Virus record (IMG/VR): IMGVR_UViG_3300043384_000025
Span: 1-52,676 of that record
Reading direction: 5' to 3' (one strand)
Length of the DNA: 52,676 bases
Origin: a virus
Lineage: Duplodnaviria; Caudoviricetes
Part shown: positions 7,761 to 22,302 of the stretch, in pieces
Position numbering within the stretch: the stretch's first letter is position 1
How the letters are laid out: the number at the start of each line of letters is the position of its first letter
Notes under the pieces: generated by a model
Database searches by the model: none
What the model was told of the DNA's origin: nothing
The model's input: the letters and a program-made list of their open reading frames with translations, nothing else
Made by a program: the position numbers and the translations under genes

Positions 7761-8283
7761 CCCAGTGGTCGGACTCAGAGTCCGTGTTACAGGCTCGGTG
7801 AGTGTATCGAGTGTGTATCGGGAATGCGCAACTGTTCTCCGGCCATCCCTTGGCTTGGAGTCCGGGTGGCACACGCTGTGTGCAGAATGCGCGGCAGCCG
7901 TTACACTGGGGGCCGACCTACGCTTGGATCGGGGGCTGCCAGTGTCGTCAAAGTCAGGCTTGGTATTCTCGACGCAGAGGCTCACGGTCATCATCAGCGA
8001 GCGACTCCGCCCAGAGCAGTCGCAGATCTGGGCCGGCGGCCGCATCGTCGTCGTCGGGCCAGGCCCAAGGGCAGCGGAGCGCGCCGAGTACGCGCTGCGA
8101 ACCTGGCGGCTCTGCGAACGGGCCACCGAGCTCGATGAAGCGGCGGGTCGGAAGGCCGCGACGCTGAGTCGTTGAATAGCTGACGTTCTGTAGTTCCCCC
8201 TGGAACAACAGCCGAACCTGACCAGTCCCCACTGGCAACGGCTCCGTTGTGTCCAGCACGCCCACAAGATTTGAGCCTGGCAC

Positions 8284-8312
8284 TTGCGCGAATGTACCGC
8301 GCTAGCTACAAC
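8284..8312 (+). promoter_or_regulatory. Putative early promoter with operator
   Basis: TTGCGC-N17-TACAAC overlapping TGTAccgcgctagcTACA (8293-8310), upstream of the plus-strand operon. Confidence 0.5.
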
Positions 8313-8345
8313 GCACGCTCCACTGCATCTGCGCGGGCGGGCCCC

Positions 8346-9230
8346 ATGAGTGGCGTCCAGAGCGACTATCGAGAGCAGCCTGGCGCGCACTACTCCACGC
8401 TCAAGGAACTGGGGCGCTCCGCTCGCCACTTCGCCTGGCTCGAGGCGCACGATCGCGAGCCGACCGCCGCCCTCGGCGTCGGGATCGCGACTCACCTCGC
8501 GGTGCTCGAGCCTGAGAAGTTCGCCGAGCGCGTGGTGATCTGGGGGCGCCAACTCGGCAGGCGCTCGGGGTCGATCTGGGCGAAGTTCAAGGGCTCCGCG
8601 GATCGGCGCGACCAGATCGTCCTGACCGAGGACGAGCACGACGAGGTGCTCGCGCTTGCTCGCGCGGTTCGTTCGAGCCCCCAGGCCAGGCCGCTGCTCA
8701 CCGACCCGAGCGGCGAGGCCGAGAAGGCGATCGCCTGGGTCGACGGCGAGACGGGGATCCAGTGCAAGGCCCGTCTCGACTGGGTGTGCGGCGCGGGAAT
8801 CGCAGACCTGAAAACCACGCGCGACGCGAGCCCCGACGGCTTCGCGCGCGAGTGCGCGCGCTACGGCTACCACAGGCAGGCTGCGTTCTACGTTGACGGC
8901 TACACCGCTGCTCAATGCCCGCGCGGAGGCTTGGTGTCCGCGACCCACCGGCAGGCGGCGTTCTCGATCATCGCCGTCGAGAAGGCACCGCCGTACGTCG
9001 TCCAGGTCTACCGCGTCGCCGGCGACGTGCTCGAGCTCGGCCGCGCGGAGATGCGGAGCTACCTGCGCCAGCTCGCTCAGCTGCAACGGCTCCCGCAGGA
9101 CCAATGGCCGGGCTACGCCGACGAGCCGCTCGACCTGTACCTGCCGCGGTGGGCGATGCCGCGGGAGGACGCGCTCGGCGACCTCGGGCTCGACGCGACT
9201 GGTCTCGACGACGCCACGAAGGAGGACTGA
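8346..9230 (+). CDS. PD-(D/E)XK exonuclease (ExoVIII/DUF3799-like)
   Basis: GIATHLAVLEPEKF, CKARLDW, IADLKTT, YGYHRQAAFY, IIAVEK, WPGY. Contains solo repeat S1 in frame. Confidence 0.88.
   Translation: MSGVQSDYREQPGAHYSTLKELGRSARHFAWLEAHDREPTAALGVGIATHLAVLEPEKFAERVVIWGRQLGRRSGSIWAKFKGSADRRDQIVLTEDEHDEVLALARAVRSSPQARPLLTDPSGEAEKAIAWVDGETGIQCKARLDWVCGAGIADLKTTRDASPDGFARECARYGYHRQAAFYVDGYTAAQCPRGGLVSATHRQAAFSIIAVEKAPPYVVQVYRVAGDVLELGRAEMRSYLRQLAQLQRLPQDQWPGYADEPLDLYLPRWAMPREDALGDLGLDATGLDDATKED
8909..8944 (+). repeat. Solo CRISPR repeat S1, in frame in the exonuclease gene
   Basis: TGCTCAATGCCCGCGCGGAGGCTTGGTGTCCGCGAC, 32/36 identical to the array consensus. Confidence 0.93.
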
Positions 9231-9235
9231 AGCCC

Positions 9236-9454
9236 ATGACACAGGACGAGCGCGAGGCGATGCGAACGGTGCTGCGAGAGAACATCGGCAAACTGATTCG
9301 CGATCTGTTGGTCGCGCCGCTGGAGGACGCATGCAAGGAGCGCCCGACCTCCGAAATCGATCGTGAGCTCCTCGAGATCGGGCGCGAGGTGTTGGCCGAC
9401 CTCACAGGACAGGTCGTCGAACCCAGCCTCATCAAGGGCGGGCCACACCTATGA
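9236..9454 (+). CDS. Hypothetical protein
   Basis: GGAGG upstream, 72 aa, coupled to the next gene. Confidence 0.6.
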   Translation: MTQDEREAMRTVLRENIGKLIRDLLVAPLEDACKERPTSEIDRELLEIGREVLADLTGQVVEPSLIKGGPHL

Positions 9455-9936
9455 GCGACACCGGCCCTGGCCCCAACGAGATCGTCGATCTGCCCGTCCC
9501 AGACGACTGGACTAAGTTGTTTGAGTCCCGCTTCCTTCACGCGGCGGACCTCGGCGGTCGCGATGTCGTGCTCAAGATCGAGCGGATGGTCTTCGAGGAG
9601 ATGCCGGACCCGAAGACGCCGAAGGCACGAAAGAAGATGGGCTCGCTCGTCTTCGAGGGACGAAAGAAGATCCTCGGGCTCAACCGGACTAATGCCACGT
9701 GCCTCAAGCAGATGTTCGGCCCCAAGCTCGCGACCTGGGTCGGCAAGCGCATCGGCCTCTACCCGACCACGGTGAGGATGCCGAAGCCGGGATCTCGGGA
9801 GATGGTCGACGAGCCCTGCATCCGCGTGCGCGGCTCGCCCGACATCGAGGCGGAGATCGTCTTCGAGCTCGTCTTGCCGCAGCGCGCGCCGATGACGGTC
9901 AAGCTCCAGCGGCTCGCCGCGGAGAAGAAGCCATGA
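9451..9936 (+). CDS. Conserved phage protein, possibly ssDNA-binding or annealing partner of the exonuclease
   Basis: FLHAADLGGRDV...LGLNRTNA...WVGKRI...CIRVR; function inferred from context only. Confidence 0.65.
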   Translation: MSDTGPGPNEIVDLPVPDDWTKLFESRFLHAADLGGRDVVLKIERMVFEEMPDPKTPKARKKMGSLVFEGRKKILGLNRTNATCLKQMFGPKLATWVGKRIGLYPTTVRMPKPGSREMVDEPCIRVRGSPDIEAEIVFELVLPQRAPMTVKLQRLAAEKKP

Positions 9937-10412
9937 GCGCTCTGGGCGAGGAATTTGTGGCCGTCGCCTTCACGGGCCACCGTCCGCCCCGCCTGCCCCT
10001 CGACGCATACCCGTCGGTCTACCTGGCCACCTTGGGCTTCCTGCGCGAGCTCAAGCCAGCCTGGGCTATTTGCGGCATGGCGCGTGGCTACGACTTGCTC
10101 GCGGCCGAGGTCTGCATCGCGCTCGGGATCCCATACATCGCGGCGATCCCATACCCGGATCAAGCCGAGCGGTGGACGCCCATGGATCGAATGACCTGGG
10201 AGTTGCTGAAACACCTAGCTGGGAGGGTGATCATCCTCTCGCAGGCCTACGCGCCGCGGAACAAGTGGATGGTCGACAACTGCGACCACCTGCTGGCGTG
10301 CTGGGACGGCGCGATCGGCGGCGGCACCGCGAGCACCGTCGCCTACGCTCGGCTGCGGGGGAAGCACGTCACGGTCTTTGCGCCGGCCCGTGAATCGAGG
10401 GTGGCCGAATGA
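9933..10412 (+). CDS. SLOG family (YspA/DUF1273-like) protein
   Basis: VAFTGHRP, GMARGYD, RNKWMVDNCD, GGTASTV. Confidence 0.85.
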   Translation: MSALGEEFVAVAFTGHRPPRLPLDAYPSVYLATLGFLRELKPAWAICGMARGYDLLAAEVCIALGIPYIAAIPYPDQAERWTPMDRMTWELLKHLAGRVIILSQAYAPRNKWMVDNCDHLLACWDGAIGGGTASTVAYARLRGKHVTVFAPARESRVAE

Positions 10413-11221
10413 TCGCCCAGGACCGCGCGCTCGTCTTCTTCGACCTCGAGGCCACGGGCGTCAACCCGCTCGATGACCGGATCATCGAGGTCTGCTTCCT
10501 CCGCCGAGAGATCGACGGTCGAGAGAGCGTCTTCGCATCGCTCGTGAATCCCGGCAGGCCGATCCCTCCGGACGCGACCGACGTCAATCGAATCACCGAT
10601 GCGATGGTCGCGGGCTTCCCGACGTTCAAGGAGCTGGCGCCGCAGATCCTCGAGATGCTCGCCGACGCCGACCTGGCGGGATTCAACATCCTCGGCTTCG
10701 ACATCCCGCTACTCGCCGCCGAGATCGCGCGAGCGGGCATGCTCCCGAGCTCGCCACCCAGGCGGCGGATCCTCGACGCCTACCTGATCTTTCACCGCCG
10801 GGAGCCGCACAGCCTCTCCGGTGCCGCGCGCCTCTACTGCGGGCTCGAGCTCGGCACCGAGGCACACCGCGCCGAGGCCGACGTGCGAGCGACGGCCGCG
10901 GTGCTCGATGCCCAGGTCGAGCGCTACGCCGACCTCGGGCGGAACGTCGCCGGCGTCGCCGAGTGGCTCAAGCAGAAGGATCCCCGCTTCGTCGACAAGG
11001 ACGGGAAGTTCTGCTGGGCGAATGGCGAGGCCGTATTTGCGTTCGGCAAGCACACCGGCAAGACGCTGCGCGCGGTCGCCGCCGGGGAGCGCGACCACCT
11101 CGAGTGGATGCTGAGGGCGTCGTTCTCTCGTGAGGTCGTCGCGCTCGTCAAGAAGGCGCTAGCGGGGGAGTTCCCGGTGCGGAACGGAGTCCCGGGGCCG
11201 GAACGGGAGGCGAAGCCATGA
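10409..11221 (+). CDS. DEDDh 3'-5' exonuclease (DnaQ-like)
   Basis: FFDLEATG, AGFNILGFD, AHRAEAD, FGKHTG. Confidence 0.9.
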   Translation: MIAQDRALVFFDLEATGVNPLDDRIIEVCFLRREIDGRESVFASLVNPGRPIPPDATDVNRITDAMVAGFPTFKELAPQILEMLADADLAGFNILGFDIPLLAAEIARAGMLPSSPPRRRILDAYLIFHRREPHSLSGAARLYCGLELGTEAHRAEADVRATAAVLDAQVERYADLGRNVAGVAEWLKQKDPRFVDKDGKFCWANGEAVFAFGKHTGKTLRAVAAGERDHLEWMLRASFSREVVALVKKALAGEFPVRNGVPGPEREAKP

Positions 11222-11412
11222 CCGAGACGAAAAACGAGTGGATCATCTGCAAGGGCAATCGGGTGAAGTTGGACGAGGTCAAGATGCCTTGGCTGACCCC
11301 GACACAGAGGGCCTGGCGCTGTCCGATGTGCGGATGCGTCACCTTCGAGGATTCGGCACTGGAGGCGAAGGACGCGGCGGTCAGGGCAATCCTGTTGGGC
11401 GAGGAGGCATAG
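11218..11412 (+). CDS. Small hypothetical protein (CxxC)
   Basis: 64 aa coupled ORF filling the gap between neighbours. Confidence 0.55.
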   Translation: MTETKNEWIICKGNRVKLDEVKMPWLTPTQRAWRCPMCGCVTFEDSALEAKDAAVRAILLGEEA

Positions 11413-11414
11413 CA

Positions 11415-12782
11415 ATGGCGAAGATCATTCGGCTTGTCGGTGAGAATTTCAAACGCATCCGCGCAATCGAAATCCTCCCGACCGGCAACGTCGTCCAAAT
11501 CCGCGGAGCCAACGGCGCCGGGAAGTCGTCGGTCCTCGATGCTATCGCGGCGGCCGTCGGCGGGGAGCGGCTCTGCCCCGAGATCCCGATCAAGCGCGGC
11601 GAGGACAAGGCCTCCGTCACCGTGGAGACCGAGGACCTCACGATCACCAGGCGCTGGACCTCGAAGGGCTCTTACCTCGAGGTCGCCGCGAAGGACGGCT
11701 CGATCTTCCGGAGCCCCCAGCGCGTCCTCGATGCCCTGACCGGCTCGCTCTCATTCGATCCGCTCTCGTTTACCCGCTTCGAGCCGGCGAAGCAGCTGAA
11801 GCTCGCGAGCGAGCTCGTCGGGGTCGACCTGGCCGACCTCGATGTCGAGCGTCGCAAGGCGTACGACGAGCGCACCGTGGTCAATCGGGAGGCCGAGCGG
11901 CTCGCGGCGCAGGTGCCGTCCCCGGTCGTGGGCGAGGTGCCAGATGAGGAGGTGAGCCTCGAGAAGGTGCTCGCTGAGCTGGAGCAGGCCGAGCACCAAA
12001 AGCGCGTGCACGAGAGCAAGCGCACCGAGCTCGCGCTACTCCGAGAGGAGCACAAGGCGACCACCGCGAAGATCGCCGACCTCAAGGGCGACCTCGCCGA
12101 GGAGGAGGGTCGCCTCGCCGCGCTCGCGACGCAGGGCAAGATCCTCGCCGCCGGGCTCGTCGGCTTGAAGGACCCCGACATCGCCGCGGCGCGGGCGCGG
12201 GCTCTTGCGGTGCAGGAAACCAACGGGCGGGTGCGCCAGAAGAAGGATCGGCTCGAGCGCCAGGCCCAGGCCCAGGTGAAGAAGGCCGAGGCTCTCGCGC
12301 TCACCGCCCGCCTTTCGGCGATCGAGGAGGAGCGGGCGAAGCGGATCGCCGCGGCGAAGTTCCCCGTCGAAGGCCTCGGCCTGGGCGAGGGCGGGCTGAC
12401 GCTCAACGGGCTTCCCTTCGAGCAGGCCTCGAGCGCCGAGAAGCTCCGGGTGAGCCTCGCGATGGGGCTCGCCCTGAATCCGAAGCTCAAGATCATCCTC
12501 ATCCGCGACGGCTCGCTCCTCGACGAGACGAGCCTCGCGCTGGTCACCGAGATGGCGGCCGCCGCTGACGCGCAGGTCTGGCTCGAGATGGTGTCGACGG
12601 ATGGGGGCCCGGTCGGGATCCTGATCGAAGACGGGATGGTCGCCGGCGCCGCCGCTCCGAGCGCGAGCCCGAAGCGGAAGCGAGACGCTCCTTCGCCGGA
12701 CGCGGCGCCCGCGGCACCGGAGCCAGAGGCGCCGAGCCAGGCCGCGAGCTCGTCCACAGCTGAAGACAACTGCCCGTTCTGA
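11415..12782 (+). CDS. Rad50/SbcC-like ATPase
   Basis: GGAGG RBS; ENFKRI, GANGAGKSS, coiled coil, ASSAEK signature, ILIRDGSLLD. Confidence 0.88.
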   Translation: MAKIIRLVGENFKRIRAIEILPTGNVVQIRGANGAGKSSVLDAIAAAVGGERLCPEIPIKRGEDKASVTVETEDLTITRRWTSKGSYLEVAAKDGSIFRSPQRVLDALTGSLSFDPLSFTRFEPAKQLKLASELVGVDLADLDVERRKAYDERTVVNREAERLAAQVPSPVVGEVPDEEVSLEKVLAELEQAEHQKRVHESKRTELALLREEHKATTAKIADLKGDLAEEEGRLAALATQGKILAAGLVGLKDPDIAAARARALAVQETNGRVRQKKDRLERQAQAQVKKAEALALTARLSAIEEERAKRIAAAKFPVEGLGLGEGGLTLNGLPFEQASSAEKLRVSLAMGLALNPKLKIILIRDGSLLDETSLALVTEMAAAADAQVWLEMVSTDGGPVGILIEDGMVAGAAAPSASPKRKRDAPSPDAAPAAPEPEAPSQAASSSTAEDNCPF

Positions 12783-12799
12783 CAGCCCGGGGGCGTCCA

Positions 12800-13144
12800 A
12801 TGTCACGACGACCGGAACAGCCGGGCGCGACTCGCCCGTCGACTCCTCACCTCGATCTGCGCGCGGCCGAGTGGGCTGCACAGCTCGTCGACGAACGCGG
12901 CTGGCGACCTGACACCGCGCTGGCGCACGCGCGCGCCGCGTACTCGCTCCCGGGTGGGCGACAGGCCGGCGCCGATGCCACGCTGACCGCCGAGTTCCGC
13001 GCGGCGCTCGTGCGACAGAGTGCCGCGCGCCGTGACGCGGGGGCGATGACGCCGCCGGACGCGGGCCTCGCGATCGAGCAAGCCGGCTCGCTCGACGCGC
13101 ACTCACGGAGAAGCCGCGCAGCGAAACGAAGGGCGGCGCGATGA
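12800..13144 (+). CDS. Hypothetical protein
   Basis: Operon position; stop overlaps the next ATG. Confidence 0.5.
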   Translation: MSRRPEQPGATRPSTPHLDLRAAEWAAQLVDERGWRPDTALAHARAAYSLPGGRQAGADATLTAEFRAALVRQSAARRDAGAMTPPDAGLAIEQAGSLDAHSRRSRAAKRRAAR

Positions 13145-13401
13145 GCCACGCTCGCGAAGGGTGGCCCGAGCTCATGGACGCCAGGGCGAAGGCGCGTCGA
13201 GCCGAAACGGTGGCCGACGTCCTGAGCGCCCAGGTGCAGCGCCTGCTAGACGAGTCCGACGAGCTCGCCGCCGAGCTCCACCGCACCCGCCGCACCGCCC
13301 GCGCCCGCGTCCACCGGCTGACGGAGCGCATCCGCATGCTACGCGCGGCCTTCGATGACGTGGCAACGAAACAGCAAACCCGAGAGGAGACCGCGCCATG
13401 A
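13141..13401 (+). CDS. Hypothetical coiled-coil protein
   Basis: Coupled ORF, 86 aa. Confidence 0.6.
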   Translation: MSHAREGWPELMDARAKARRAETVADVLSAQVQRLLDESDELAAELHRTRRTARARVHRLTERIRMLRAAFDDVATKQQTREETAP

Positions 13402-13976
13402 ACCGCAAGGGCAGAGAAGTGATCGAGACGAAGACCGAGGACCTGCTCGTCGTACTCGAAGAGGACGAGATCAACGAGCGCGCACGCAAGCTCGCCGCGA
13501 AACAGGGCGAGCTCGAGCACCAAATCGATGAAGGGCGCCGCATCCAGGGCGAGCAGGCCACGAGGCGCAAGGCCATCGAGGCGGAGATCAAGGGCCTCGG
13601 CGACGCCGTCCGCGAAGGGACGGAGCTGCGCCCGGTGGTCGTCGAGATCATCGCGAACTATTCGAAGGCCACCATCCAAGAGATCCGAGAGGACACGGGG
13701 AAGGTGATCATCGAGCGGGCGATGCGGGCCGACGAGCGGCAGATCGGGATCCCCATGAACGAGATCAAGAACGAGTCCCCGAAGGCGGTCGCAAAGCGGC
13801 TCTTCGCCGATGGCGTCCGCCCCGAGGACGTCGGGATCGAGCAGAGGGTCAGCGATGCCGCGGCGGCGGCGCACGTCGAGATCGCCGCGGTGCTCGAGGC
13901 GCTGGTCGACCTCGCCGAGGAGGCGGCCGCGAGGAAGGGCAAGCGCAAGGGCGGCGATGGCGAGGCGACGCCGTGA
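13398..13976 (+). CDS. Hypothetical protein
   Basis: GAGGAG RBS, strong GC3 bias, 192 aa. Confidence 0.7.
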   Translation: MNRKGREVIETKTEDLLVVLEEDEINERARKLAAKQGELEHQIDEGRRIQGEQATRRKAIEAEIKGLGDAVREGTELRPVVVEIIANYSKATIQEIREDTGKVIIERAMRADERQIGIPMNEIKNESPKAVAKRLFADGVRPEDVGIEQRVSDAAAAAHVEIAAVLEALVDLAEEAAARKGKRKGGDGEATP

Positions 13977-14587
13977 GCGCACGCATCGGCGCATGGTCGC
14001 AGACCTACACGGGCCGCCAATACTGGCCGCAGGACCCGCGCCCCGAGGACGTTGACCCGATCGACATCGCGCACGCCCTGTCGCTGCAATGTCGTTTCGG
14101 CGGCCACTGCAAGTGGCATTACTCGGTAGCGCAGCACTCGCTTCTTGTGGCCGAACTCCTCGGCTCAATGCCCGCGCAGGGGCCTGGTACCTGCGACTGG
14201 GGCTTGCTGCACGATGCCTCCGAGGCATACATGGTCGACCTCCCGAGGCCGCTGAAGAACCACTCGGCGATGGGCCTCGAATACAAGCGGATCGAAGCAC
14301 TGAACATGAGAGCGATCTGGGCGCGCTTCGGGCTCGTCGGACCGCAACCCGAGGCTGTCGCAATCGCCGACGAAGTGGCGTTGGCGATGGAGTTTCGCGA
14401 CGTCATGGGGTTGCCTCCGGATGCGCTGAATCTCCAGCAGGCGCCGGCGTCCCCCATCATCACTCGCATGAGCCCGGAGGCTTGCGAGGCGATCTTCCTC
14501 AATACCCTCGGCGTGCTCCTCGAAGCCCGAAGGGACGAGCAGGCGGGGTGGTCTTCGGCACATCTCCTCGCGCTCGAAGAACGATGA
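13973..14587 (+). CDS. HD-domain phosphohydrolase (YfdR/YfbR-like 5'-deoxynucleotidase)
   Basis: DIAHALS..CRFGGH..YSVAQHS...LLHDASEAY..DLPRPLK. Contains solo repeat S2 in frame. Confidence 0.9.
   Translation: MSARIGAWSQTYTGRQYWPQDPRPEDVDPIDIAHALSLQCRFGGHCKWHYSVAQHSLLVAELLGSMPAQGPGTCDWGLLHDASEAYMVDLPRPLKNHSAMGLEYKRIEALNMRAIWARFGLVGPQPEAVAIADEVALAMEFRDVMGLPPDALNLQQAPASPIITRMSPEACEAIFLNTLGVLLEARRDEQAGWSSAHLLALEER
14162..14197 (+). repeat. Solo CRISPR repeat S2, in frame in the HD hydrolase gene
   Basis: GGCTCAATGCCCGCGCAGGGGCCTGGTACCTGCGAC; stem CGCAGG/CCTGCG fully compensated. Confidence 0.85.
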
Positions 14588-14712
14588 AATGCCAACCGGG
14601 CCCCTGAGCTCGGCGCGGAGCACGTGCGGTCTCCGTGGCGACAGAACAACCGCACGCTGGGCCCGCCGGCGGCCGAGTCACCGCCGGCGGGCGCCATCCA
14701 AAGGAGGTCCAA

Positions 14713-14997
14713 ATGGCAACGCTGGTCATTCACATGCTGGACGGGACGGTCGTTCGAAAAACCGTTCCGGTCGTCGAAGCTGTCGCGATACATCTACTGC
14801 GCGCCATGCTCCGGATGCCGCCCGGCGCGCGAGTCGGGCCGGTCTCGTCGAGCGAGGTCTTGCTCCTCGCCGTGCACTCCCTGACCGCGTGTCCCCAGTG
14901 CGGCGCGGACGGCTTTGGCAACCCGGGCGGATGCCAGGTGTGCGCGCTCGGGCGAAAGGTTGTCGAGACGTTCAAGAATGGGAAGGCGTCGGCATAA
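14713..14997 (+). CDS. Small Zn-finger protein upstream of cas12
   Basis: AAGGAGG RBS; CPQC...CQVC; 94 aa. Confidence 0.7.
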   Translation: MATLVIHMLDGTVVRKTVPVVEAVAIHLLRAMLRMPPGARVGPVSSSEVLLLAVHSLTACPQCGADGFGNPGGCQVCALGRKVVETFKNGKASA

Positions 14998-15005
14998 AGG
15001 CGGCC

Positions 15006-15041
15006 ATATCAATGCCCGCGCGGAGGCCTGGTATCCGCGAC
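15006..15041 (+). repeat. Solo CRISPR repeat S3 in the cas12 5' region
   Basis: ATATCAATGCCCGCGCGGAGGCCTGGTATCCGCGAC, ending 42 nt before the cas12 ATG. Confidence 0.93.
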
Positions 15042-15083
15042 TGCGCGCTCGGGACGTCGAGGATCCGAAGAGGAGGCATTGCA

Positions 15084-16790
15084 ATGATCGTCTACAAATA
15101 TCGCATCTACCCAGACGAATCCGATCCGATGCTGCGCCAGATCCTGATGAGGGGAGAACGCTTCGCGCGGGTGATGACCGAGATCCATCAGCGTTACAAA
15201 GAGGCGGCTGCCGATCGCAAGCTTGTCGCGGTCGAGCAGCGCCGGGACTTCGCCTTGCTGGCCAAGTCGAGATTCCTCGCCGAGGCTAGGGACGCCAGGG
15301 CCCATTCCGGGCTCCACGGTAGCACCTGTAGCGCGATATCTGCCGCGCGCGACCAGGCCGCGCGTACGACCTCGCGCAAGTGCCTGCTCGCCAAGAAGGG
15401 CGGGGTGTGCCGCTGCGGCGAAGAGCATGCCGAGGGTACGCGCATTTGGATGCAATTCGAGCCACGGGTGGCAATCGTGGGGTGCCCGTTCTGCGGCCGA
15501 GGCCTTCGCATGCCGATCTCCGGAGAAGGGGGCGTCATCGGCGGGCAGATTCGCCACGACCGGCGATATTGCACGACAGACGAGATCCTCGGCGGCGAGT
15601 CTAGCGCCGTGCGCATTACTGGGACGGGGCGCGACCGCGTCGTACATCGTCGCGTGGCCGCCGCCGACGGAGAACCGGTATGGCTCTCGGCGCCGATGGT
15701 CTACCATCGCCCTCTGCCTCCTGGAGAGGGGGCGCGAGATGCTAGATTCGTGCGGCGTCGCATCGGCCATCACGCCGAGTGGCACGTGCTATTAACGATC
15801 GACTCCGAGTCATCGAGGCTTCCGAGCCCGACAAAGGGGTCCGTCGGCATCGATCTCGGCTGGCGACAGATGGACACCGGCGAGCTCCGAGTCGCAGCGT
15901 GGCGTGACGACACCGGCGCAGAGGGAGAGGTCCGCATCCCGGCGCAACTCGTTCGAGACATGCGCTCTGTCGACGAATTGCAGTCGACCAGGTCGACCAA
16001 CCTGGACGCGCTCCGAGACGCCCTGGTACTCGCCCGTGAGAGCTGGCCCGCGGGACTCTCCGAGGCGACTCGCTCGCTCCATCAATGGCGGTCACCAGAT
16101 CGGTTCGTGAGGCTCATGTACCGCATTCGCCGGGAAGCGCCAGGCGTCGCCGGAGCGGGCGCACTACGCGACTGGTATCGACGCCTGGACGACACCGGCC
16201 TGGCCCACGGAGAGAGCCATCTCAGAGAATGGGCGGAGCACCAGCGGGAGCATTGCCTGCTACGGAGAAAGGAGTTCTTTCGCTTGCAGGCACGGCAGTT
16301 CGCGGCGTACCGCGAAATGCATTGCGAGGACCTCGACCTATCCAAGTTGGCCAGACTCGCGGACGACCCCGAAGAGCGCCTCGCCAGGAAGGCGAGGCAT
16401 AACCGGATGCTTGCCGCGCCGAGCTACCTGCGCGCCGACATATTGTCATGCGTCGAACGGGCCGGCGGGCTGGTGGTCAAAGTGGACCCGGCGTACACCA
16501 CGCAGAAGTGCCCGATGTGCGGCCTCGTCTCCAGGTTGGACCCGATGCCGATCATACATACCTGCCCCGAGTGCGGTGTGACGCTCGACCAAGACCTCAA
16601 GGCAGCCGAAAACATTCGGCGAGCGCCGAGGTGCTCGCCGCCGAAGGGACCCCGCTCGCAGCCGCAAGATGCCGAGGTCGCAAAGCTTTCCGCATGGGCG
16701 CGCAGAAAGGCAGCCAAGACAGCACGAGAAGCGGAGGACCGCTCGCAAGGCGACTTGCAAGTGGTCGACAACATTGACATCGCAAAGTGA
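15084..16790 (+). CDS. cas12m: Compact type V CRISPR effector, Cas12m-like (V-M/V-U1, TnpB-derived), 568 aa
   Basis: AGGAGG RBS; N-terminal VYKYRI; MVYHRPLP; RuvC-I VGIDLGWR (D257); RuvC-II CEDLDL (E415); AAPSYLR; TTQKCPMCG...CPECG; RuvC-III DQDLKAAENI (D504). Stop is 3 nt from the first repeat. Subtype assigned from remembered motifs, not from a search. Confidence 0.85.
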   Translation: MIVYKYRIYPDESDPMLRQILMRGERFARVMTEIHQRYKEAAADRKLVAVEQRRDFALLAKSRFLAEARDARAHSGLHGSTCSAISAARDQAARTTSRKCLLAKKGGVCRCGEEHAEGTRIWMQFEPRVAIVGCPFCGRGLRMPISGEGGVIGGQIRHDRRYCTTDEILGGESSAVRITGTGRDRVVHRRVAAADGEPVWLSAPMVYHRPLPPGEGARDARFVRRRIGHHAEWHVLLTIDSESSRLPSPTKGSVGIDLGWRQMDTGELRVAAWRDDTGAEGEVRIPAQLVRDMRSVDELQSTRSTNLDALRDALVLARESWPAGLSEATRSLHQWRSPDRFVRLMYRIRREAPGVAGAGALRDWYRRLDDTGLAHGESHLREWAEHQREHCLLRRKEFFRLQARQFAAYREMHCEDLDLSKLARLADDPEERLARKARHNRMLAAPSYLRADILSCVERAGGLVVKVDPAYTTQKCPMCGLVSRLDPMPIIHTCPECGVTLDQDLKAAENIRRAPRCSPPKGPRSQPQDAEVAKLSAWARRKAAKTAREAEDRSQGDLQVVDNIDIAK

Positions 16791-16793
16791 CCC

Positions 16794-17390
16794 CTCTCAA
16801 TGCCTGCGCGGAGGCTTGGTATCCGCGACCTCTCCGAGGCGGTGCGCTTCGACCCGAAGGGCTTCTCTCAATGCCTGCGCGGAGGCTTGGTATCCGCGAC
16901 GAGCTGGTCTCCGTGCATGCAGCCGTCACCACGCACTCTCAATGCCTGCGCGGAGGCTTGGTATCCGCGACGAGGCAGATCATGACTCGCATACCAGCCT
17001 ATCTCCCTCTCAATGCCTGCGCGGAGGCTTGGTATCCGCGACTTGATGCTCTCGAGCATTTCGCGCGAGGGGGCGCGCTCTCAATGCCTGCGCGGAGGCT
17101 TGGTATCCGCGACTGCCAGCTCGGGACGATGCCCGCGAAGAGGCTCGCCCGTCCCCTTTCAATGCCTGCGGAGAGGCCTTGTATCTCCGACCTCGAGCGC
17201 CCGGTCGAGCTCGGCGCGGGTGGCCGGCTTTCAATGCCTGCGGAGAGGCTTGGTGTCTCCGACCGTGGGCTCGTGCTCGTCGCGCCGCCGCAATCTCGAG
17301 CTCTCAATGCCTGCGCAGAGGCTTTGTTTCTGCGACGCGCGGATTCTCCTATTACTCTCAATGCCTGCGAAGAGGCTTTGTATCTTCGAC
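16794..17390 (+). CRISPR. CRISPR array, 9 repeats of 36 nt and 8 spacers
   Basis: Consensus CTCTCAATGCCTGCGCGGAGGCTTGGTATCCGCGAC. Starts at 16794, 16865, 16936, 17007, 17078 (identical) and 17156, 17228, 17301, 17355 (variants). Spacers are 35, 35, 35, 35, 42, 36, 37 and 18 nt. Confidence 0.97.
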
Positions 17391-17394
17391 TCGC

Positions 17395-17426
17395 GCCGCC
17401 CTCCCGCACCGGGCGGCATTCTCTTT
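17395..17426 (+). terminator. Putative terminator hairpin after the array
   Basis: GCCGCCC-N9-GGGCGGC followed by ATTCTCTTT (weak U tract). Confidence 0.45.
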
Positions 17427-17459
17427 GATATCTTCGCCGACGACCGCAGGGAGTGATAG

Positions 17460-17774
17460 ATGGACATCGAGTGCGTCATCAGAGAAGCGGTTCGTACCAG
17501 CATCCGCGAGGAGCTGCGCGCCGCCCTGGGCGAACTCAAGGCCTCGACGGCGCCAGCGGCCTACCTCACGATCCGCGAGGCCGCGGAGCTCGCCAGGGTC
17601 TCGTGCGACTCGCTCCGGAGGTGGATCGGCGCCGGCCGCCTCACCGCTCGGCGTGCCGGCAGGGAGTTGCGGATCGAGCGCTCGGCTCTCGAGGCGTTCC
17701 TCTCGGAGAACATCGCGGCCCCCAAACCGTCGCCAGATCAGTGCTTCGATCGGATGTTCGGCGGCAAGCGCTGA
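17460..17774 (+). CDS. xis: Excisionase / HTH_17 DNA-binding protein
   Basis: YLTIREAAELARVSCDSLRRWIGAGRLTARRAGRELRI; directly upstream of the integrase. Confidence 0.85.
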   Translation: MDIECVIREAVRTSIREELRAALGELKASTAPAAYLTIREAAELARVSCDSLRRWIGAGRLTARRAGRELRIERSALEAFLSENIAAPKPSPDQCFDRMFGGKR

Positions 17775-17822
17775 CAGAGGCCGGCGCGGCGGGGTAGTGT
17801 CCCACGAGCTACACAGAGGCCG

Positions 17823-17858
17823 CTCTCAATGCCTGCGAAGAGGCTTGGTATCTTCGAC
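17823..17858 (+). repeat. Solo CRISPR repeat S4, abutting the integrase RBS
   Basis: CTCTCAATGCCTGCGAAGAGGCTTGGTATCTTCGAC, then GAGGAGGCAGC-ATG. Confidence 0.95.
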
Positions 17859-17869
17859 GAGGAGGCAGC

Positions 17870-19624
17870 ATGGGGCTGTACGCGAGAGGCACGCGGCTTT
17901 GGTTTTCGTGGACCGACGCGAACGGGAAGCGGCACCGCGAGCCGAGCGACTTCGAGGTCGGCCAGGAAGCGATGGCCGCGAAGGTGCTCGCGCGCGGGCA
18001 GGCGAAGATCGCCGCCGAGAAGAAGGCGCTGGCCGGCGGGCCGCGCGTGCACACCGAGAAGACTTCGCTGACCGACTACGTGCTGGGCGCACCTGGTGGC
18101 TGGCTCGAGGTCCGCCGGGCACGCAAGCCCGGTGTCGCTGCGAGCGAGCAGAGCATGTTCGAGTGCCACATCAGCCCGTTCCTCGGCCAGATGGCGCTGG
18201 GAGAGATCCGGCCTCGGAACGCGCGCGCGTTCATCTGGCACATGCGCGAGAAGATCAGCGAGGAGACCGGCCGGACGTTCGGAGGCAGGACGATTCGATC
18301 GATCGCCGGTCTGCTCGGGGCCATCCTCGACGATGCCGCGAGCGACGAGATCATCCCGATCAGCCCGTACAAGCTCAAGCGCGGGGATCTCCCGCCGAAG
18401 ATCGACGTCGATCCTCTGTGGCGGCAGCTCGCGTTCTTCGAGCGCGAGGAGATCGAGCAGTTGATCGGCGACCCGCGGATCCCGGAGGATCGCCAGGTGG
18501 TCTACGCCCTGGGGTTCATGACCGGCATGCGGCCGGGCGAGGTCGCTGCCCTGCGATGGGAGCGCTACCTGGCGAACGAGCAGCCGCTTGGGAAGCTGGT
18601 GGTCGCGACGAGCTTCTGCGCGAAGACGCACAAGGAGAGGCCGACCACCAAGACGAGCTCGACGAAGCTCGTGCCCGTGCACGCGTCGCTCGCGTCGATC
18701 TTGGCGAAGTGGAAGCTCGGCGGGTGGGCGCGGCTCATGGGCACTGACCCGCGGCCCAGGGACCTGCTCGTGCCGTCACGGCGGCGCGGGGACTTCCGCA
18801 ACCCCAACGACATGACGAACTCGCTCGAGGTCGACCTCGATGCGCTGGGGCTGCGCCGCAGGACGGCGCGCGACTGGAGGCCGAGCTTCATGACGCTGGT
18901 GCGGGCGGACGGGGCGATCGACGAGATCGCCAGGATGATCACGCATGGGGGGCAAAAGGACACCGTCGGCGGTTACCTTCGATTCCCATGGGCGACCGTG
19001 TGCCGCGAGTTGGCGAAGTTGCGAATCGAGCTCCGGGGGGAGGGGCTCGTGCTACCTTTTCGGCAGGCGGTCGGGGGGGACGGAGTCACGATGGAGGATG
19101 GGGTCTCAATGCCCGCGGAGAGGCCTGGTATCTCCGACATATCACACGCGGGGGAATCTGAGGCATTGGCACAGCGTTGTCACAGCCCGGAAAAACAGCC
19201 CTGTTTACAGCTACCTGGGGAGGTACACGGTTTGAGCCGGAACCAAAGTGCGGGTGTGGGGCCAGGCAGACTCACGCCGGCTAACGCCGCAGAATCACAG
19301 AGTGTCGCGGCGCGGCAATCGGCGTCAAGCGGGCTCGCGCCGACTCCCGTTGTGACAATGTGCCAATCAGGCGGCCGCACCAAGCCCGCCGTCGAGCCCG
19401 TCGTCGACCCCGTCGCCGACCCGTGGGACGAAGCCGCTACACGTTTTGTAGCGGCCGTAGCGGCCGCCCGGGACCCCGTCGGCGAAGCCCTCCTCGCCGC
19501 CCAGGATGCCTGGAGCGGGGCTCGCGACCGCATCGGCCTCCGAGTGCGCCTGCTCGAGATCGACCGCCTGCTCGACCGCATGGCCCTTGCCGAGCGGCCC
19601 TTGCCGCCGGGGGGCAAGCCTTGA
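17870..19624 (+). CDS. int: Tyrosine integrase with long C-terminal extension
   Basis: TGMRPGEVAALRW, TKT, VPVH, RDWR (variant of HxxR), ITH, GGY. Confidence 0.9.
   Translation: MGLYARGTRLWFSWTDANGKRHREPSDFEVGQEAMAAKVLARGQAKIAAEKKALAGGPRVHTEKTSLTDYVLGAPGGWLEVRRARKPGVAASEQSMFECHISPFLGQMALGEIRPRNARAFIWHMREKISEETGRTFGGRTIRSIAGLLGAILDDAASDEIIPISPYKLKRGDLPPKIDVDPLWRQLAFFEREEIEQLIGDPRIPEDRQVVYALGFMTGMRPGEVAALRWERYLANEQPLGKLVVATSFCAKTHKERPTTKTSSTKLVPVHASLASILAKWKLGGWARLMGTDPRPRDLLVPSRRRGDFRNPNDMTNSLEVDLDALGLRRRTARDWRPSFMTLVRADGAIDEIARMITHGGQKDTVGGYLRFPWATVCRELAKLRIELRGEGLVLPFRQAVGGDGVTMEDGVSMPAERPGISDISHAGESEALAQRCHSPEKQPCLQLPGEVHGLSRNQSAGVGPGRLTPANAAESQSVAARQSASSGLAPTPVVTMCQSGGRTKPAVEPVVDPVADPWDEAATRFVAAVAAARDPVGEALLAAQDAWSGARDRIGLRVRLLEIDRLLDRMALAERPLPPGGKP
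19103..19138 (+). repeat. Solo CRISPR repeat S5, in frame in the integrase C-terminal extension
   Basis: GTCTCAATGCCCGCGGAGAGGCCTGGTATCTCCGAC; stem CGGAGA/TCTCCG. Confidence 0.92.
19165..19367. other. Putative attP inside the integrase gene
   Basis: Left arm-like repeats TTGGCACA and TTGTCACA (19166-19184) are inverted relative to TGTGACAA and TGTGCCAA (19351-19366); lower GC. Core not identified. Confidence 0.55.
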
Positions 19625-19629
19625 TCGCC

Positions 19630-19665
19630 CCCTCAATGCCCGCGCAGAGGCTTGGTGTCTGCGAC
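19630..19665 (+). repeat. Solo CRISPR repeat S6, just after the integrase stop
   Basis: CCCTCAATGCCCGCGCAGAGGCTTGGTGTCTGCGAC; stem CGCAGA/TCTGCG. Confidence 0.92.
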
Positions 19666-19712
19666 CTCGACCTCCTGCGCCTGCTCGAGGCCTCGCCGGC
19701 GAGCGGGCGCCC

Positions 19713-20324
19713 GTGATCGCCGCGCTCTACGTCGCCAAGGGCGGCGTGTACTACGGGCTCCCCGACGTCGATCCCTGGGACGAGGCGCGGGACGCTCGGC
19801 TCTACGCCGGCCCGTGGCCGGTGGTCGCACACCCGCCATGCGCCAGGTGGTGCGGATTGGCGGGGCTCGTTGAGGCTCGATGGGGTCACCGTCGAGGCGA
19901 AGACGGAGGATGCTTTGCTTCGGCCCTCGCCTCCGTGCGGCGGTGGGGCGGCGTGCTTGAGCATCCGGCCTATTCCGCTGCATGGGCCAAATTCCTGCTA
20001 CCGGCCCCACCCCGTCATGGCGGATGGGTGCGCGGAATCTGTGGCGGTTGGGCGGCTCATGTCGAGCAGTCCAGGTTTGGACATGTTGCCAAGAAAGCTA
20101 CGTGGCTATACGCATTCCACGTGTTTCCGCCATCAATGCCGTGGGGCTCATCGCCAGATGGTTCTTCGCTAGCTATTGTCTCGTGGTGCGGGAACCACAC
20201 TTCTAGATTCGACACTCGGCCTAGAATTGGTAAGGCTCGCGCAGCGGCGACGCCCGTCGCATTCCGCGATTTGCTTCTTTCTATCTCCAGGAGCGCCAAT
20301 GGCTCGTCCGCGAACGCTACTTGA
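19713..20324 (+). CDS. Putative DNA cytosine methyltransferase-like protein
   Basis: IAALYV...DARLYAGPWPVVAHPPCARW...GGVLEHP...KKATWLY; PC and EHP motifs resemble C5-MTase motifs IV and VI. Confidence 0.65.
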   Translation: MIAALYVAKGGVYYGLPDVDPWDEARDARLYAGPWPVVAHPPCARWCGLAGLVEARWGHRRGEDGGCFASALASVRRWGGVLEHPAYSAAWAKFLLPAPPRHGGWVRGICGGWAAHVEQSRFGHVAKKATWLYAFHVFPPSMPWGSSPDGSSLAIVSWCGNHTSRFDTRPRIGKARAAATPVAFRDLLLSISRSANGSSANAT

Positions 20325-20728
20325 TATTCGTTTTTGGCTGAAGGTCGACAAGCGTGGACCAGGCGAGTCAGCGCGCCGGCACAGGGATAACGTGGTCTCA
20401 CATCGCGCGCACGGCCCCTCAACCACTCTTCCCTTCCCGCAGAGAGGAGCGCCTAGGACTCCTCTGTGCTCCCGAAATTGGCAGGGCGAGACCGATGCCG
20501 CGGTGCGCGCGTTTCAGGGTGCCCAGAATCTCGAGGTTGACGGGAGGGTCGGGCGCGAGACCTGGCTGAAGCTGCTCGCGTAGGTCGACGGCAGGTCCCG
20601 ACGAGGGCGACGATTCGCGCCTCGGCATCGAGCTGAATCCGTCGTACCTCGACGACAGCCTCAAGCGCCTCCGTTCCGCCGCCGCCCAGCAACTCCTTCC
20701 ATTCACGCAGAGAGGAGAACCACCATGA
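20299..20728 (+). pseudogene. Mosaic of gene remnants (HNH N-terminus, PG-binding domain, MTase C-terminus)
   Basis: RFWLKVDKRGP; AAVRAFQGAQNLEVDGRVGRETW; LGIELNPSYLDDSLKRL (from 20621). Confidence 0.6.
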
Positions 20729-21294
20729 GTAGCGACCAGCCGCTTCCGACCGTCGACCCCCGTTCCCGACCGGTGACCACCGCGTTGCGCGAGCTCCTCG
20801 ACGCACGGGAGCAGCGCGGCATCGCGACTTACGGTCGCAGCCTCACGACGCATAATGGGCGCGTTTCCCCGCGCGACCTGGTCGAGGAGCTCATCGACGG
20901 GGCGCAGTACGGACTTCAGTGGGAGCTCGAGCGCACCGACATGCTCGAGGACATCGCCCGCCTGAAGCGCGCGCTCGACGCCGTGCGCAGCAACGCCGAG
21001 CAGATCAGGGACGAGGCGCGCGCGGCGGCCGAGGCGTACCTGGTGGAGCGCGCAGCCCTCAAGGAGCAGCTCGCCTGGTGCCGCGCGAGGCTCGCGCCCA
21101 GGTCGGCGGTGTCCTTCGACATCCTCGCGGCGGCGGCTGCGATGCCCGACGCCCCGCCTGTCACGCTCGGCGAGGTGCTCGGCGGGGGACTCATCCGCGA
21201 GGCCAGCGTCACCATCGACGAGAGCTTGCAGCGGCTCAAGGGGAAGATCGACGCCGCAATGGCCGCCGACGCCGACGACAAGGCGACGGAATAG
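20725..21294 (+). CDS. Hypothetical protein (possible all-alpha NTP pyrophosphatase-like N-terminus)
   Basis: AGGAG RBS; REQRGIATYG..L...NGR...EELIDGAQY. Confidence 0.65.
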   Translation: MSSDQPLPTVDPRSRPVTTALRELLDAREQRGIATYGRSLTTHNGRVSPRDLVEELIDGAQYGLQWELERTDMLEDIARLKRALDAVRSNAEQIRDEARAAAEAYLVERAALKEQLAWCRARLAPRSAVSFDILAAAAAMPDAPPVTLGEVLGGGLIREASVTIDESLQRLKGKIDAAMAADADDKATE

Positions 21295-21306
21295 CCCCGG
21301 GCCCGC

Positions 21307-21342
21307 AAAGAGGAACCCACCCAAGCTCGCGCCGGGTGGGCT
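21307..21342 (-). terminator. Intrinsic terminator between convergent operons
   Basis: CCCACCC-N11-GGGTGGG followed by TTCCTCTTT on the minus strand. Confidence 0.6.
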
Positions 21343-21378
21343 GTCGGAGATACCAAGCCTCTCCGCGGGCATCGCGCA
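21343..21378 (-). repeat. Solo CRISPR repeat S7 (minus strand, 3' UTR of the leftward operon)
   Basis: Reverse complement is TGCGCGATGCCCGCGGAGAGGCTTGGTATCTCCGAC; first 6 nt diverged, both stems intact. Confidence 0.88.
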
Positions 21379-21397
21379 GCAACTCGTTCGGAGAAGT

Positions 21398-21712
21398 CTA
21401 CTTCGCCGGATCGGCCGCCGCCACCTGTTGCGCGCCGCTGGCCCTGGGCTCGACGCCGAGCGCTTCCCGCGCACGCTGGCAGAGCACGACCGAGGAGGCG
21501 TGATCGCTGCCGGTGAGGCGCTTCCATTCCTTGGCTACCTCATCGGTCCAATACCGGCCATCGTGAAAGAGCAGCACCGCTCGGAGGGCGTCGCCCATGG
21601 CATGGACGGTGGTCTCGGCCTGCCGGGCCAACTCGATCAGCTGCTCGTTCTGCTCATGCAGTAGGCGCCAATCCCGCTCGATCGTCCGCAACCGTTCTTC
21701 GATGATGTTCAC
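21398..21712 (-). CDS. Hypothetical protein
   Basis: GTG after GGAGG, coupled to the upstream stop. Confidence 0.6.
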   Translation of the reverse strand: MNIIEERLRTIERDWRLLHEQNEQLIELARQAETTVHAMGDALRAVLLFHDGRYWTDEVAKEWKRLTGSDHASSVVLCQRAREALGVEPRASGAQQVAAADPAK

Positions 21713-22302
21713 TTGCGCCTCCAGACCGAGAGGCCGTCGTGGATCCCGGACCACGTCGGGATCCGGCGGGCGGCCAGCGTCTCGAACCGCGCCTCGAGCA
21801 GCTCGTCGAACCGAACGTCGGCGCAGCACCCGCCGACCTCGCCGACGTAGATCACTCGCTTGCCCTCGTAGACTTCGAGCGCTTCGGCCGCCCATGGCAT
21901 GGCGTACGACGGCCAGATCAGCATCAGCGTCCGCTCGGGGTACACCTTCGCCGCGGTCGCAGCGTCCATCTCGACGACCGGGTGCCACTGGCGCTCGAAC
22001 CGCACGGTGCCGATCGGCGTCCGGCTCGAGGGCACCGGGTGGAGGTCGGTGGCGATGATGTCCACGCCGAGCGCTTCCAGCTCGTACGCCCAGTAGCCTG
22101 CGCCCGCGCCTACCTCGATGATCGGCCCATACCTCGCGACAGCGAGCAGCGCGTCCTCATCGGGGATCGCGAAGCCGAAGCCGCGCACGAACCTGGACCT
22201 GAGATCGATGACCCGCTCGAGATCGAAGAGCGGGTAGCCGGACAGGAAGCCGTCTCCCGCCTTCACGCCAGCGTCTCGCAAAGCCTGCTCGTACAGGGTC
22301 AA
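21709..22302 (-). CDS. Class I SAM-dependent methyltransferase-like protein
   Basis: IIEVGAGAGYWA, DIIATD, LMLIWP, VIYVGE. Confidence 0.75.
   Translation of the reverse strand: MTLYEQALRDAGVKAGDGFLSGYPLFDLERVIDLRSRFVRGFGFAIPDEDALLAVARYGPIIEVGAGAGYWAYELEALGVDIIATDLHPVPSSRTPIGTVRFERQWHPVVEMDAATAAKVYPERTLMLIWPSYAMPWAAEALEVYEGKRVIYVGEVGGCCADVRFDELLEARFETLAARRIPTWSGIHDGLSVWRRK

Follow-up and report, generated by a model that had tools for sequence, protein, structure and literature searches.

TnpB is the ancestor of Cas12, and Cas12a can excise clustered regularly interspaced short palindromic repeat (CRISPR) RNAs (crRNAs) from engineered messenger RNAs (mRNAs). In type V-M systems, Cas12m is reported to mature its own pre-crRNA by cutting inside the repeat 5' of the scaffold and without a trans-activating crRNA (tracrRNA), to use crRNAs of 50-60 nucleotides (nt), and to bind DNA next to a protospacer-adjacent motif (PAM) without cleaving it; the PAM of GoCas12m is given as 5'-TTN and the diversity in the family is described as 'T- and C-rich' (PMC10442227; PMC11013384). 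There are earlier descriptions of solitary repeat units in phages, of crRNA-like RNAs with a regulatory role, of viral mini-arrays and of Cas12m carried by phages. In the literature searched, we found no solitary units that are cognate to a phage's own effector, lie in frame in conserved genes and have PAM-flanked repeat-free ('empty') alleles. Here, we analyse a stretch of 52,676 bp (the window), which is the whole of IMG/VR virus record IMGVR_UViG_3300043384_000025 and which encodes a Cas12m-like effector, an adjoining CRISPR array and seven copies of the array repeat that stand alone in or beside the phage's own genes (solo1 to solo7). We give an even chance to the reading, drawn from the sequence, that this is a type V-M system in which part of the guide set would reside in the array and the rest in sense solo units within the phage's own transcripts, aimed at repeat-free alleles.

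In a phmmer search of PDB chains, the closest solved relatives of the effector are all Cas12m (23vw_A, 1.9e-33; 23vu_A UnCas12m4a, 2.7e-23; 8hio/8hhl Cas12m2, ~4.6e-14), and the next family is Cas-phi (2.3e-6). D257/E415/D504 align with the RuvC motifs of 23vw, and the protein contains a Pfam Cas12f1-like_TNB match (5.2e-15) with CPMCG and CPECG motifs. Judged by this relatedness, by its RuvC and TNB features and by the adjoining array, the effector is a member of the Cas12m family and of type V-M. An adaptation module is usually absent from type V-M, which fits with the failure to find Cas1 (PF01867) in the record, which CheckV estimates to be ~80% complete. Moreover, the same repeat family adjoins Cas12m homologues of 24-39% identity in 31 of the 87 loci fetched. 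Searches of IMG/VR with the Cas12m protein and with an exonuclease profile gave no close relative of the phage, the best exonuclease among the 80 kept having 41% identity.

The 36-nt repeat is present in 16 copies in the window, nine in the array and seven as solos. An IUPAC pattern allowing at most three mismatches gave 16 matches where 100 shuffles gave an expectation of 0.00. A covariance model (R1) that was based on 146 distinct members of the family and applied without filters returned 47 matches at E<=10, of which exactly 16 fell at 49.2-56.6 bits and the next one, the 17th, at 15.5 bits; given this gap, we conclude that the window holds no further copies. The model found none in 1.04 Mb of 84 other phage loci. 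Thus, the seven solos listed in the preliminary description of this DNA were all recovered, within 2 nt of the positions given there and besides the nine-repeat array, and the scan of the whole window added no others. All seven solos score in the same range as the array repeats (49-56 bits). The 6-bp stem is 100% paired in the 12 distinct copies and includes three covarying pairs with 10 cells changed on both sides, a level reached in 0 of 500 shuffles; the GCC/GGC pairing never varies and is, therefore, uninformative. The solos depart from the family at none of the positions that are invariant or almost invariant among its 146 members, despite differing from one another at up to ~8 of 34 positions with compensated stems. 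Position 12 is C in six solos and T in the array and solo4, and the stems of those six are of four different kinds, all of them fully compensated. As had been claimed of the consensus, none of the copies contains a stop codon in any of the three sense frames.

All seven solos, including the minus-strand copy, are sense to the gene or operon in which they stand, as judged from open reading frames (ORFs) and codon-position G+C and as the preliminary description had stated; they stand 400 nt to 7.9 kb from the array (Table 1). It had also assigned three solos to positions in frame within genes, two to positions before ribosome-binding sites and two to positions after stop codons. The latter two pairs were recovered as described (solo3 and solo4; solo6 and solo7). 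Among the three in-gene cases, those in the exonuclease (solo1) and the HD hydrolase (solo2) stand, while the integrase copy (solo5) lies at the end of the homology and is followed by ~220 nt without coding periodicity in a frame that nevertheless remains open. The further claim that no solo is present in the structural operon holds for the window and fails for a relative: in contig L054, which is 79-85% identical to 46578-47915, the gene that follows the major head gene and its terminator has a repeat 3 nt ahead of its Shine-Dalgarno sequence, and the window has no repeat at this site. Separately, we observed two solos in locus L099 (44-75 and 1564-1595, minus strand) that are opposite in strand to the homologue of window gene 9699-10412 lying between them; possibly, they are an exception to the sense rule or part of neighbouring leftward units. 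Two apparent in-gene solos in loci L050 and L026 were dropped, as both lie upstream of gene starts in long GC-rich open frames according to Pfam (XkdF from residue 568; N_methyl motif at 139).

Table 1. Positions of the repeats, guides and neighbouring features in the window
Feature	Position	Strand	Description
Near-target of solo1 guide	8870..8889	+	Phage's own copy; codes YHRQAAF; CTA flank; 18/20 match
Solo1	8909..8944	+	In frame in DUF3799/PD-(D/E)xK exonuclease gene (ATG 8346 to 9230), residues 189-200
Solo1 guide-like stretch	8945..8964	+	20 nt; second copy of HRQAAF codons
Solo2	14162..14197	+	In frame in YfbR-like HD hydrolase gene (13973-14587)
Small ORF	14713..14997	+	94 amino acids; CxxC...CxxC; good Shine-Dalgarno; between HD gene and solo3/cas12m; no Pfam family
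Solo3	15006..15041	+	5' untranslated region of cas12m; 27 nt before Shine-Dalgarno, 42 nt before ATG
cas12m	15084..16790	+	568 amino acids; RuvC D257/E415/D504; zinc-ribbon TNB domain
CRISPR array	16794..17390	+	9 repeats, 5 identical and 4 variant; 71-nt period; directly 3' of cas12m
Truncated repeat remnant	17123-17149		Inside 'spacer 5'
Hairpin, then U/C-rich tract	17395..17426	+	After last array repeat; terminator-like, not called by consensus scan
Solo4	17823..17858	+	Abuts integrase Shine-Dalgarno (GAGGAGG); ATG 17870, 12 nt past repeat
Integrase ORF	17870..19624	+	Mx8 Int homology over residues 10-417, to about nt 19120
Solo5	19103..19138	+	At end of integrase core, where homology and codon periodicity stop; frame open to 19624
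Solo6	19630..19665	+	5 nt past stop codon 19622-19624; upstream of next gene
Solo7	21343..21378	-	3' untranslated region of leftward gene 21398-21988; strong hairpin and U/C tract follow (21342-21306)

The two in-gene solos are absent from close homologues. The insert of solo1 lies in a predicted surface coil (residues 191-205) of the exonuclease, where the AlphaFold model has a predicted local distance difference test (pLDDT) score below 50 at residues 195-200 (mean 86), and the exonuclease homologue P0003 (82% identity) lacks it. Solo2 takes the place of a variable loop in the HD hydrolase, its end directly adjoining WGLLHDA, which no other invariant run of alignment A2 exceeds in length, and the HD homologues P0123 and P0124 (69% identity) lack it. 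That the repeat is a discrete insertion in homologous genes is, therefore, borne out as far as its absence from these homologues goes; however, the inserts are not clean 36-nt insertions, with net gains of nine amino acids in the exonuclease and five in the HD hydrolase and with altered 5' flanks. In a further exonuclease (P0004, 81% identical, on a 61-kb contig), a different insert of seven amino acids (RIDRAVE) is present at exactly the solo1 loop (alignment A1).

We compared the contigs of four metagenome DNA runs over 8200-21600 and aligned filled and empty sites by eye. In relatives of the phage, solo5 is replaced (in X3 from 19071 to 19160 with 40 other letters, and in X4 from 19078 to 19157), solo6 is replaced in X4 (19528 to 19665, 23 letters) and solo7 is skipped in X4 (21342 to 21446). 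Relatives also carry the repeat where the window has none, i.e. before sequence homologous to window 9323 inside a 72-residue ORF (X4), before window 12624 inside the SMC/AAA gene (X3) and near 14765. The 3' junction is exact in that the repeat always ends in ...CGAC and is followed directly by the homologous sequence. Read depth over cas12m was low in runs X2-X4, from which we draw no inference.

In the repeat-free alleles and targets seen as DNA, the match to the would-be guide is preceded by CTG at the solo5 site in X3, by CTC at the solo6 site in X4, by CTG at both window 9320-9322 (filled in X4) and window 12621-12623 (filled in X3), and by CTA at the exonuclease site of the solo1 guide (window, L123 and L126). 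In total, CT is present at -3/-2 in five of seven cases, which at a CT dinucleotide frequency of 0.054-0.059 has a binomial probability of 6e-6 to 3e-5. By contrast, all 16 filled sites have GAC at the position where CTN stands in the empty allele. These observations suggest that 5'-CTN is a PAM-like mark and a candidate PAM of the window Cas12m. The expectation that repeat-free alleles exist and share a PAM was borne out in that such alleles are found and five of seven have CTN, and was not borne out by the other two. In contig L055 (40% G+C; 5807-5929, minus strand), we observed a transfer RNA (tRNA) gene, tRNA-Lys(ttt), with its anticodon loop interrupted by 16 nt and a V-M repeat ending in ...CTTCGAC. 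This tRNA was found by aragorn only if a 49-nt 'intron' was allowed; its 3' half is the would-be guide, the intact loop would read TTT before that guide, and an intact tRNA-Arg lies 1.6 kb upstream.

The would-be guides of the two in-gene solos coincide with conserved protein motifs. The solo2 guide consists of the WGLLHDA codons; among 80 viral sites kept from an HD-motif scan, 44 differ from the 20-nt guide at no more than two positions, and CT precedes 45 and TT precedes 13 of the 80. The solo1 guide stands in place of the SHRGLMPAF-type loop of homologues and is not a continuation of the ancestral loop; the HRQAAF codons that it duplicates lie 75 nt upstream. It matches the YHRQAAFY codons at 20/20 positions in virus locus L126 and at 19/20 in L123, both with the CTA flank. 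The mismatches of the phage's own near-target are at guide positions 5 and 13, where AGG and GCT are both synonymous minor codons, AGG accounting for 11% of the 849 Arg codons and GCT for 7% of the 1453 Ala codons in this phage. This single case looks like a real repeat-spacer unit that would be aimed at a conserved catalytic motif and the owner's copy of which appears detuned.

Shorter self-matches were less informative. Matches of 11 nt were rejected as noise, since one is present in 83% of 400 random 35-mers. For four of the 16 guides (against a null of 5% per guide), the first 12 nt have a match elsewhere in the window, namely for solo3 at 14941-14952 with the flank GTG, for array spacer 1 at 16056, for the last repeat at 13131 and for solo4 at 47503, where a ribosome-binding site is shared; none has a CTN flank, and we take all four to be due to chance or a shared motif. 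Local upstream similarity of at least 12 was found for three of seven solos against a null of 0.029 (2000 random places), and only the solo1 case survived inspection.

Solo3 with its downstream stretch (15006-15076) is paralogous to array repeat 5 with its 'spacer' (17078-17150), as in TGCNNGCTCGGGACG...CGAAGAGG. Based on this paralogy and on the truncated repeat within that spacer, cas12m and the five identical repeats together resemble a cassette that was placed within a heterogeneous array of greater age. The 226 distinct spacers of the fetched arrays, compared by blast with all fetched loci, matched only copies of themselves, apart from one ambiguous intra-contig match in L028. Moreover, locus L098 (1-7089, minus strand) contains 46 repeat-like units (at most four mismatches) on one strand with gaps of 10-1388 nt; these are either numerous solitary units or a V-M array that is extremely irregular or decayed.

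From the observed anatomy, conservation, presence/absence polymorphism, CTN flank and effector family, we infer processing, loading, PAM recognition and interference as follows. Cas12m would bind the hairpin/pseudoknot of a repeat in an mRNA, cut 5' of the repeat and keep the repeat together with ~20 nt of downstream phage sequence as a crRNA. A solo guide would not engage the phage's own DNA because, as in the array, the repeat end GAC occupies the PAM position. In a repeat-free relative, whether phage or prophage, the same sequence would stand behind 5'-CTN, and Cas12m would sit there without cutting and block transcription or replication. The outcome would be superinfection exclusion or phage-phage competition, exerted through conserved motifs that are hard to mutate, and the same solo units would necessarily have an effect in cis, on the mRNAs that contain them, as well. 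This reading fits with the reported role of V-M systems and viral mini-arrays in conflicts between mobile elements (PMC11656645). In the preliminary description, it had been proposed that the effector cuts guides from ordinary mRNAs against repeat-free alleles while the repeat masks the PAM in self. Our analysis supports this proposal in part, namely by CTN in empty versus GAC in filled alleles, by the guides on conserved motifs and by a Cas12m effector, and speaks against it by the two of seven sites without CTN and the lack of targets for the array spacers tried.

Several further points weigh against the repeat units being guides for use in trans. The flank is CAG in the L054/window pair and CCG in the case near 14765. 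The CTN motif was picked after seeing the data, so that the binomial probability is post hoc. CTN is a Leu codon at a codon boundary in three cases and, thus, insertion or coding bias could yield it. The alleles of the relatives rest on contig joints and the letters between them, and metagenome contigs can be chimeric at repeats; moreover, the filled and empty sequences compared at solo5 are identical at only 14 of 20 positions. At the untidy 5' junction, 5-30 nt are replaced. IMG/VR gave no exact 20-nt match to the solo5 20-mer or to the first 20 nt of array spacer 2 or 3. Cleavage within the exonuclease and HD mRNAs would come at the expense of the phage's own gene expression. It may be that the solos are young, and their intactness alone is no proof of selection. 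Finally, cis regulation equally explains the four solos that lie in untranslated regions, where they adjoin ribosome-binding sites or a terminator.

Because of these four solos and of the recurrence of a solo before cas12m, we keep cis regulation as a strong partner of the guide reading, with which it is compatible, or as a serious rival to it; as the sole explanation, we hold it to be possible, if only tentatively. The solos would then be control sites at which Cas12m cuts polycistronic mRNAs and stays at the new 5' end, the guide being incidental, and the bound protein would stabilise the downstream mRNA or cover the adjacent ribosome-binding site. Solo4 directly abuts the integrase Shine-Dalgarno sequence, the L054 solo precedes one by 3 nt, and solo7 and the last array repeat each precede a hairpin and U/C tract. 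Solo3 lies in the 5' untranslated region of cas12m, and L071, L072 and L094 likewise have a solo upstream of cas12m. The sequence GAGGCATTG, which is the complement of the conserved 5' CAATGCC of the repeat, occurs only twice in the window, at 15073-15081, where the solo 22-32 nt to its 5' side is solo3, and at 19160-19168, where it is solo5. When the solo3 region is folded to minimum free energy, CAAUGCC of the repeat is paired with GGCAUUG, which lies between the cas12m Shine-Dalgarno sequence and AUG; the copy near solo5 marks the point where homology with repeat-free relatives resumes. In published work, standalone repeats are reported to be common upstream of cas12a (10.1101/2023.03.03.530964), CreR RNAs to autorepress V-A cas genes (10.1101/2023.03.03.530964; 10.1101/2023.03.10.532045), and engineered direct repeats in untranslated regions to lower gene expression via Cas RNases (10.1101/2025.03.17.643761).

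However, cis regulation alone accounts neither for the in-gene solos that stand exactly 5' of the codons of the most conserved motifs, nor for the duplicated HRQAAF stretch at solo1, nor for CTN at the repeat-free junctions, and cutting inside the exonuclease and HD reading frames would be an odd form of regulation. Moreover, the matches at 14941 and 16056, which could have served an autoregulatory guide, lack CTN and are within chance. A consensus promoter and terminator scan of 8000-22500, which does not cover myxobacterial promoters, gave one promoter-like site and none at a solo. In L072 (188-240) and L094 (265-320), both on the plus strand, the solo before cas12m is followed by a duplicate of the last 11 nt of the repeat itself, and in the repeats of these loci this stretch is preceded by TTT or TTA. 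This solo guide may seed on every repeat of its locus in an autoregulatory circuit.

An extension of the guide reading is that the solo units are self-propagating 'guide plus immunity' cassettes, the filled allele making a guide against the empty allele while being itself exempt; we regard this as doubtful. The filled allele would win mixed infections. Alternatively, replication would stall at Cas12m bound to CTN and target, and the empty allele would be converted in a copy-choice repair that uses the filled one. After such conversion, the 3' junction would be precise and the 5' junction untidy, and the process would amount to a CRISPR-based drive among phages, with the retention logic of TnpB and without a transposase. 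In the case of solo5, the guide begins where Mx8 has its attP core, and Cas12m could mark or block the attP or attB of rivals; in the L055 case, a phage tRNA-Lys gene would become a guide against intact tRNA genes.

It is also conceivable that the solos are functionless footprints or selfish passengers, i.e. copies of the array repeat that would have been dispersed by recombination, whether repeat-mediated or illegitimate, or by some mobilising activity of unknown nature. They would be tolerated wherever they leave a gene unbroken and would appear intact on account of their youth. Their presence and absence vary between relatives at ~80-95% identity, their 5' junctions are untidy, and a repeat without stops in every sense frame would easily survive in frame. 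V-M arrays of this repeat family are, moreover, often irregular or decayed (L098 with its 46 units; the truncated repeat in the window array), and the paralogous repeat units that flank cas12m suggest cassette recombination. Nevertheless, a sense orientation in 7/7 cases is expected by chance in ~1 of 128, every solo retains the full stem and all family-invariant positions, and the sole decayed copy is in the array with none among the solos. Random scars would not be expected to have CTN at 5/7 empty sites or to stand before conserved motifs, and a Y1 transposase (PF01797) was not found in the record, nor was Cas1, whereas a control search found PF01797 in six of 14 known genomes. Because of the orientation, integrity and placement of the solos, neutral scars are less likely, and we consider this explanation unlikely. 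That the solos are RNA anti-CRISPRs (Racr-like decoys), which soak up the Cas12m of a host or of rival elements, is very unlikely: phage solitary repeat units can reportedly act as Racrs (PMC10651486), and V-M systems are reported to be common on plasmids and present in some prophages (PMC11656645), but such decoys would poison the phage's own cognate cas12m and array, two or three of the solos lie in reading frames and not behind a promoter of their own (the consensus scan, which is weak for this host, found none at a solo), and Racr units are, in the accessible part of their description, unlinked to cas genes (PMC10651486).

The record is linear, with a G+C content of 62-75% across the window. 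Matches to PHROGs identify a helicase gene at 4504-6906 and, on the minus strand from ~35 to 52.6 kb, the genes for portal, head protease, major head, sheath, tape measure and baseplate proteins. The plus-strand block of ~8 to 20 kb that holds the array and six of the solos encodes, besides the TnpB/Cas12-type protein, a DUF3799 PD-(D/E)xK exonuclease, an RNase T-like exonuclease, an SMC/AAA protein, the YfbR-like HD hydrolase and the integrase ORF. Among 50,697 phage records searched, the integrase matches only Int of Myxococcus phage Mx8 (35% identity over residues 10-417); this soil phage is, therefore, a temperate tailed phage, probably of a myxobacterium. When 17400-19700 was used as a DNA query against 401 genomes of one phylum, only short low-complexity matches were obtained and neither the host nor attB was identified.

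Coding periodicity in the integrase ORF stops near 19100, and the ~220 nt within the open frame at 19105-19360 have no codon periodicity and a lower G+C content; an in-frame ATG at 19358 could open a separate product of 88 amino acids. Mx8 likewise carries attP within int, where the attP core follows the corresponding end of the alignment by 25 nt. At 19105-19360, we recognised no fragment resembling a tRNA, and attB was not found for it; across the window, a tRNA screen found none and no Rfam family matched. In a relative in X3, the start region of the small ORF upstream of solo3 is swapped for 28 nt and a repeat. Finally, a long run of 60-nt periodic repeats with ~75% G+C and 17 copies in the largest family is present at 26475-28030 and presumably encodes a repetitive structural protein.

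If the solo guides work, CRISPR would have a way of storing guides without spacers, in that a repeat is planted before a gene that its owner already has. Self and non-self would then be told apart by an insertion and not by sequence, which would be a new mode of phage competition. The effector would be a natural compact Cas12 that draws its guides from, or is wired into, protein-coding mRNAs and that has the candidate PAM 5'-CTN. Cis regulation, if true, would be new as well, with phage Cas12m as a factor in mRNA processing and translation control.

The closest relatives of this locus are the type V-M systems of plasmids and some prophages, with which it shares a Cas12m-family effector, an adjoining array of 36-nt repeats with stem and pseudoknot, the failure to find Cas1, a mobile element as carrier and an expected role in silencing rival elements by binding alone. 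It differs from them in that most of its repeat units, by placement, stand outside the array, sense in genes and untranslated regions, with the phage's own sequence as guides. For the myxophage MV-1, the accessible part of a 2026 preprint describes only an effector and an eight-spacer array and makes no mention of solitary repeats (10.64898/2026.09.14.751636); its Cas12m of 610 amino acids (D305/E463/D555) and that of the window (568 amino acids, D257/E415/D504) are different proteins. Like Racrs and other solitary units, the solos are single repeats in a viral genome, away from the array and with the repeat structure kept; Racrs, as far as their description is accessible, mimic host repeats and are intergenic, with their own promoter and no link to cas genes, whereas the window has its cognate effector aboard and two or three units in frame. 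The SRUFinder survey is reported to mask ORFs and to treat intragenic matches as probable false positives (PMC10651486), and surveys of this kind are blind to such units.

Solo3 resembles CreR and the standalone cas12a repeats in lying just upstream of the effector gene, a position that recurs in L071, L072 and L094, and the stretch in L072/L094 that repeats the 3' end of the repeat, TTN-preceded in the repeat, resembles a partial-match autoregulatory guide; in contrast, solo3 of the window has no convincing partial target, and the other six solos are not beside cas genes. Viral mini-arrays are similar in that their guides, too, are virus-borne and correspond to genes in related viruses; however, they consist of repeat-spacer-repeat with foreign spacers and rely on Cas proteins of the host, whereas the window combines a single repeat, its own gene and a viral effector. 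In V-K and in Cas9 non-canonical crRNAs (ncrRNAs), functional guides are likewise encoded off the array or derived from ordinary transcripts; in the accessible parts of these reports, the single V-K guide serves transposon homing and the Cas9 ncrRNAs arise by chance pairing with tracrRNA, and neither involves repeats built into coding genes.

Finally, the preliminary description had likened the solos to the omega-RNAs of TnpB (IS200/IS605), and this comparison holds as an analogy. In both, the guide is the 3' flank, the element parts that flank from a motif (the target-adjacent motif, TAM, of TnpB; here CTN), and only the empty site would be targetable, as illustrated by CTN in five of seven empty sites and GAC at the filled sites. 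Unlike these transposons, the solos are 36-nt units with untidy 5' junctions, without a Y1 TnpA and without transposon ends, and Cas12m is reported not to cut DNA. Altogether, the likeness is one of logic and not of membership and, if the solo guides work, it would tie CRISPR arrays to the logic of TnpB omega-RNAs.

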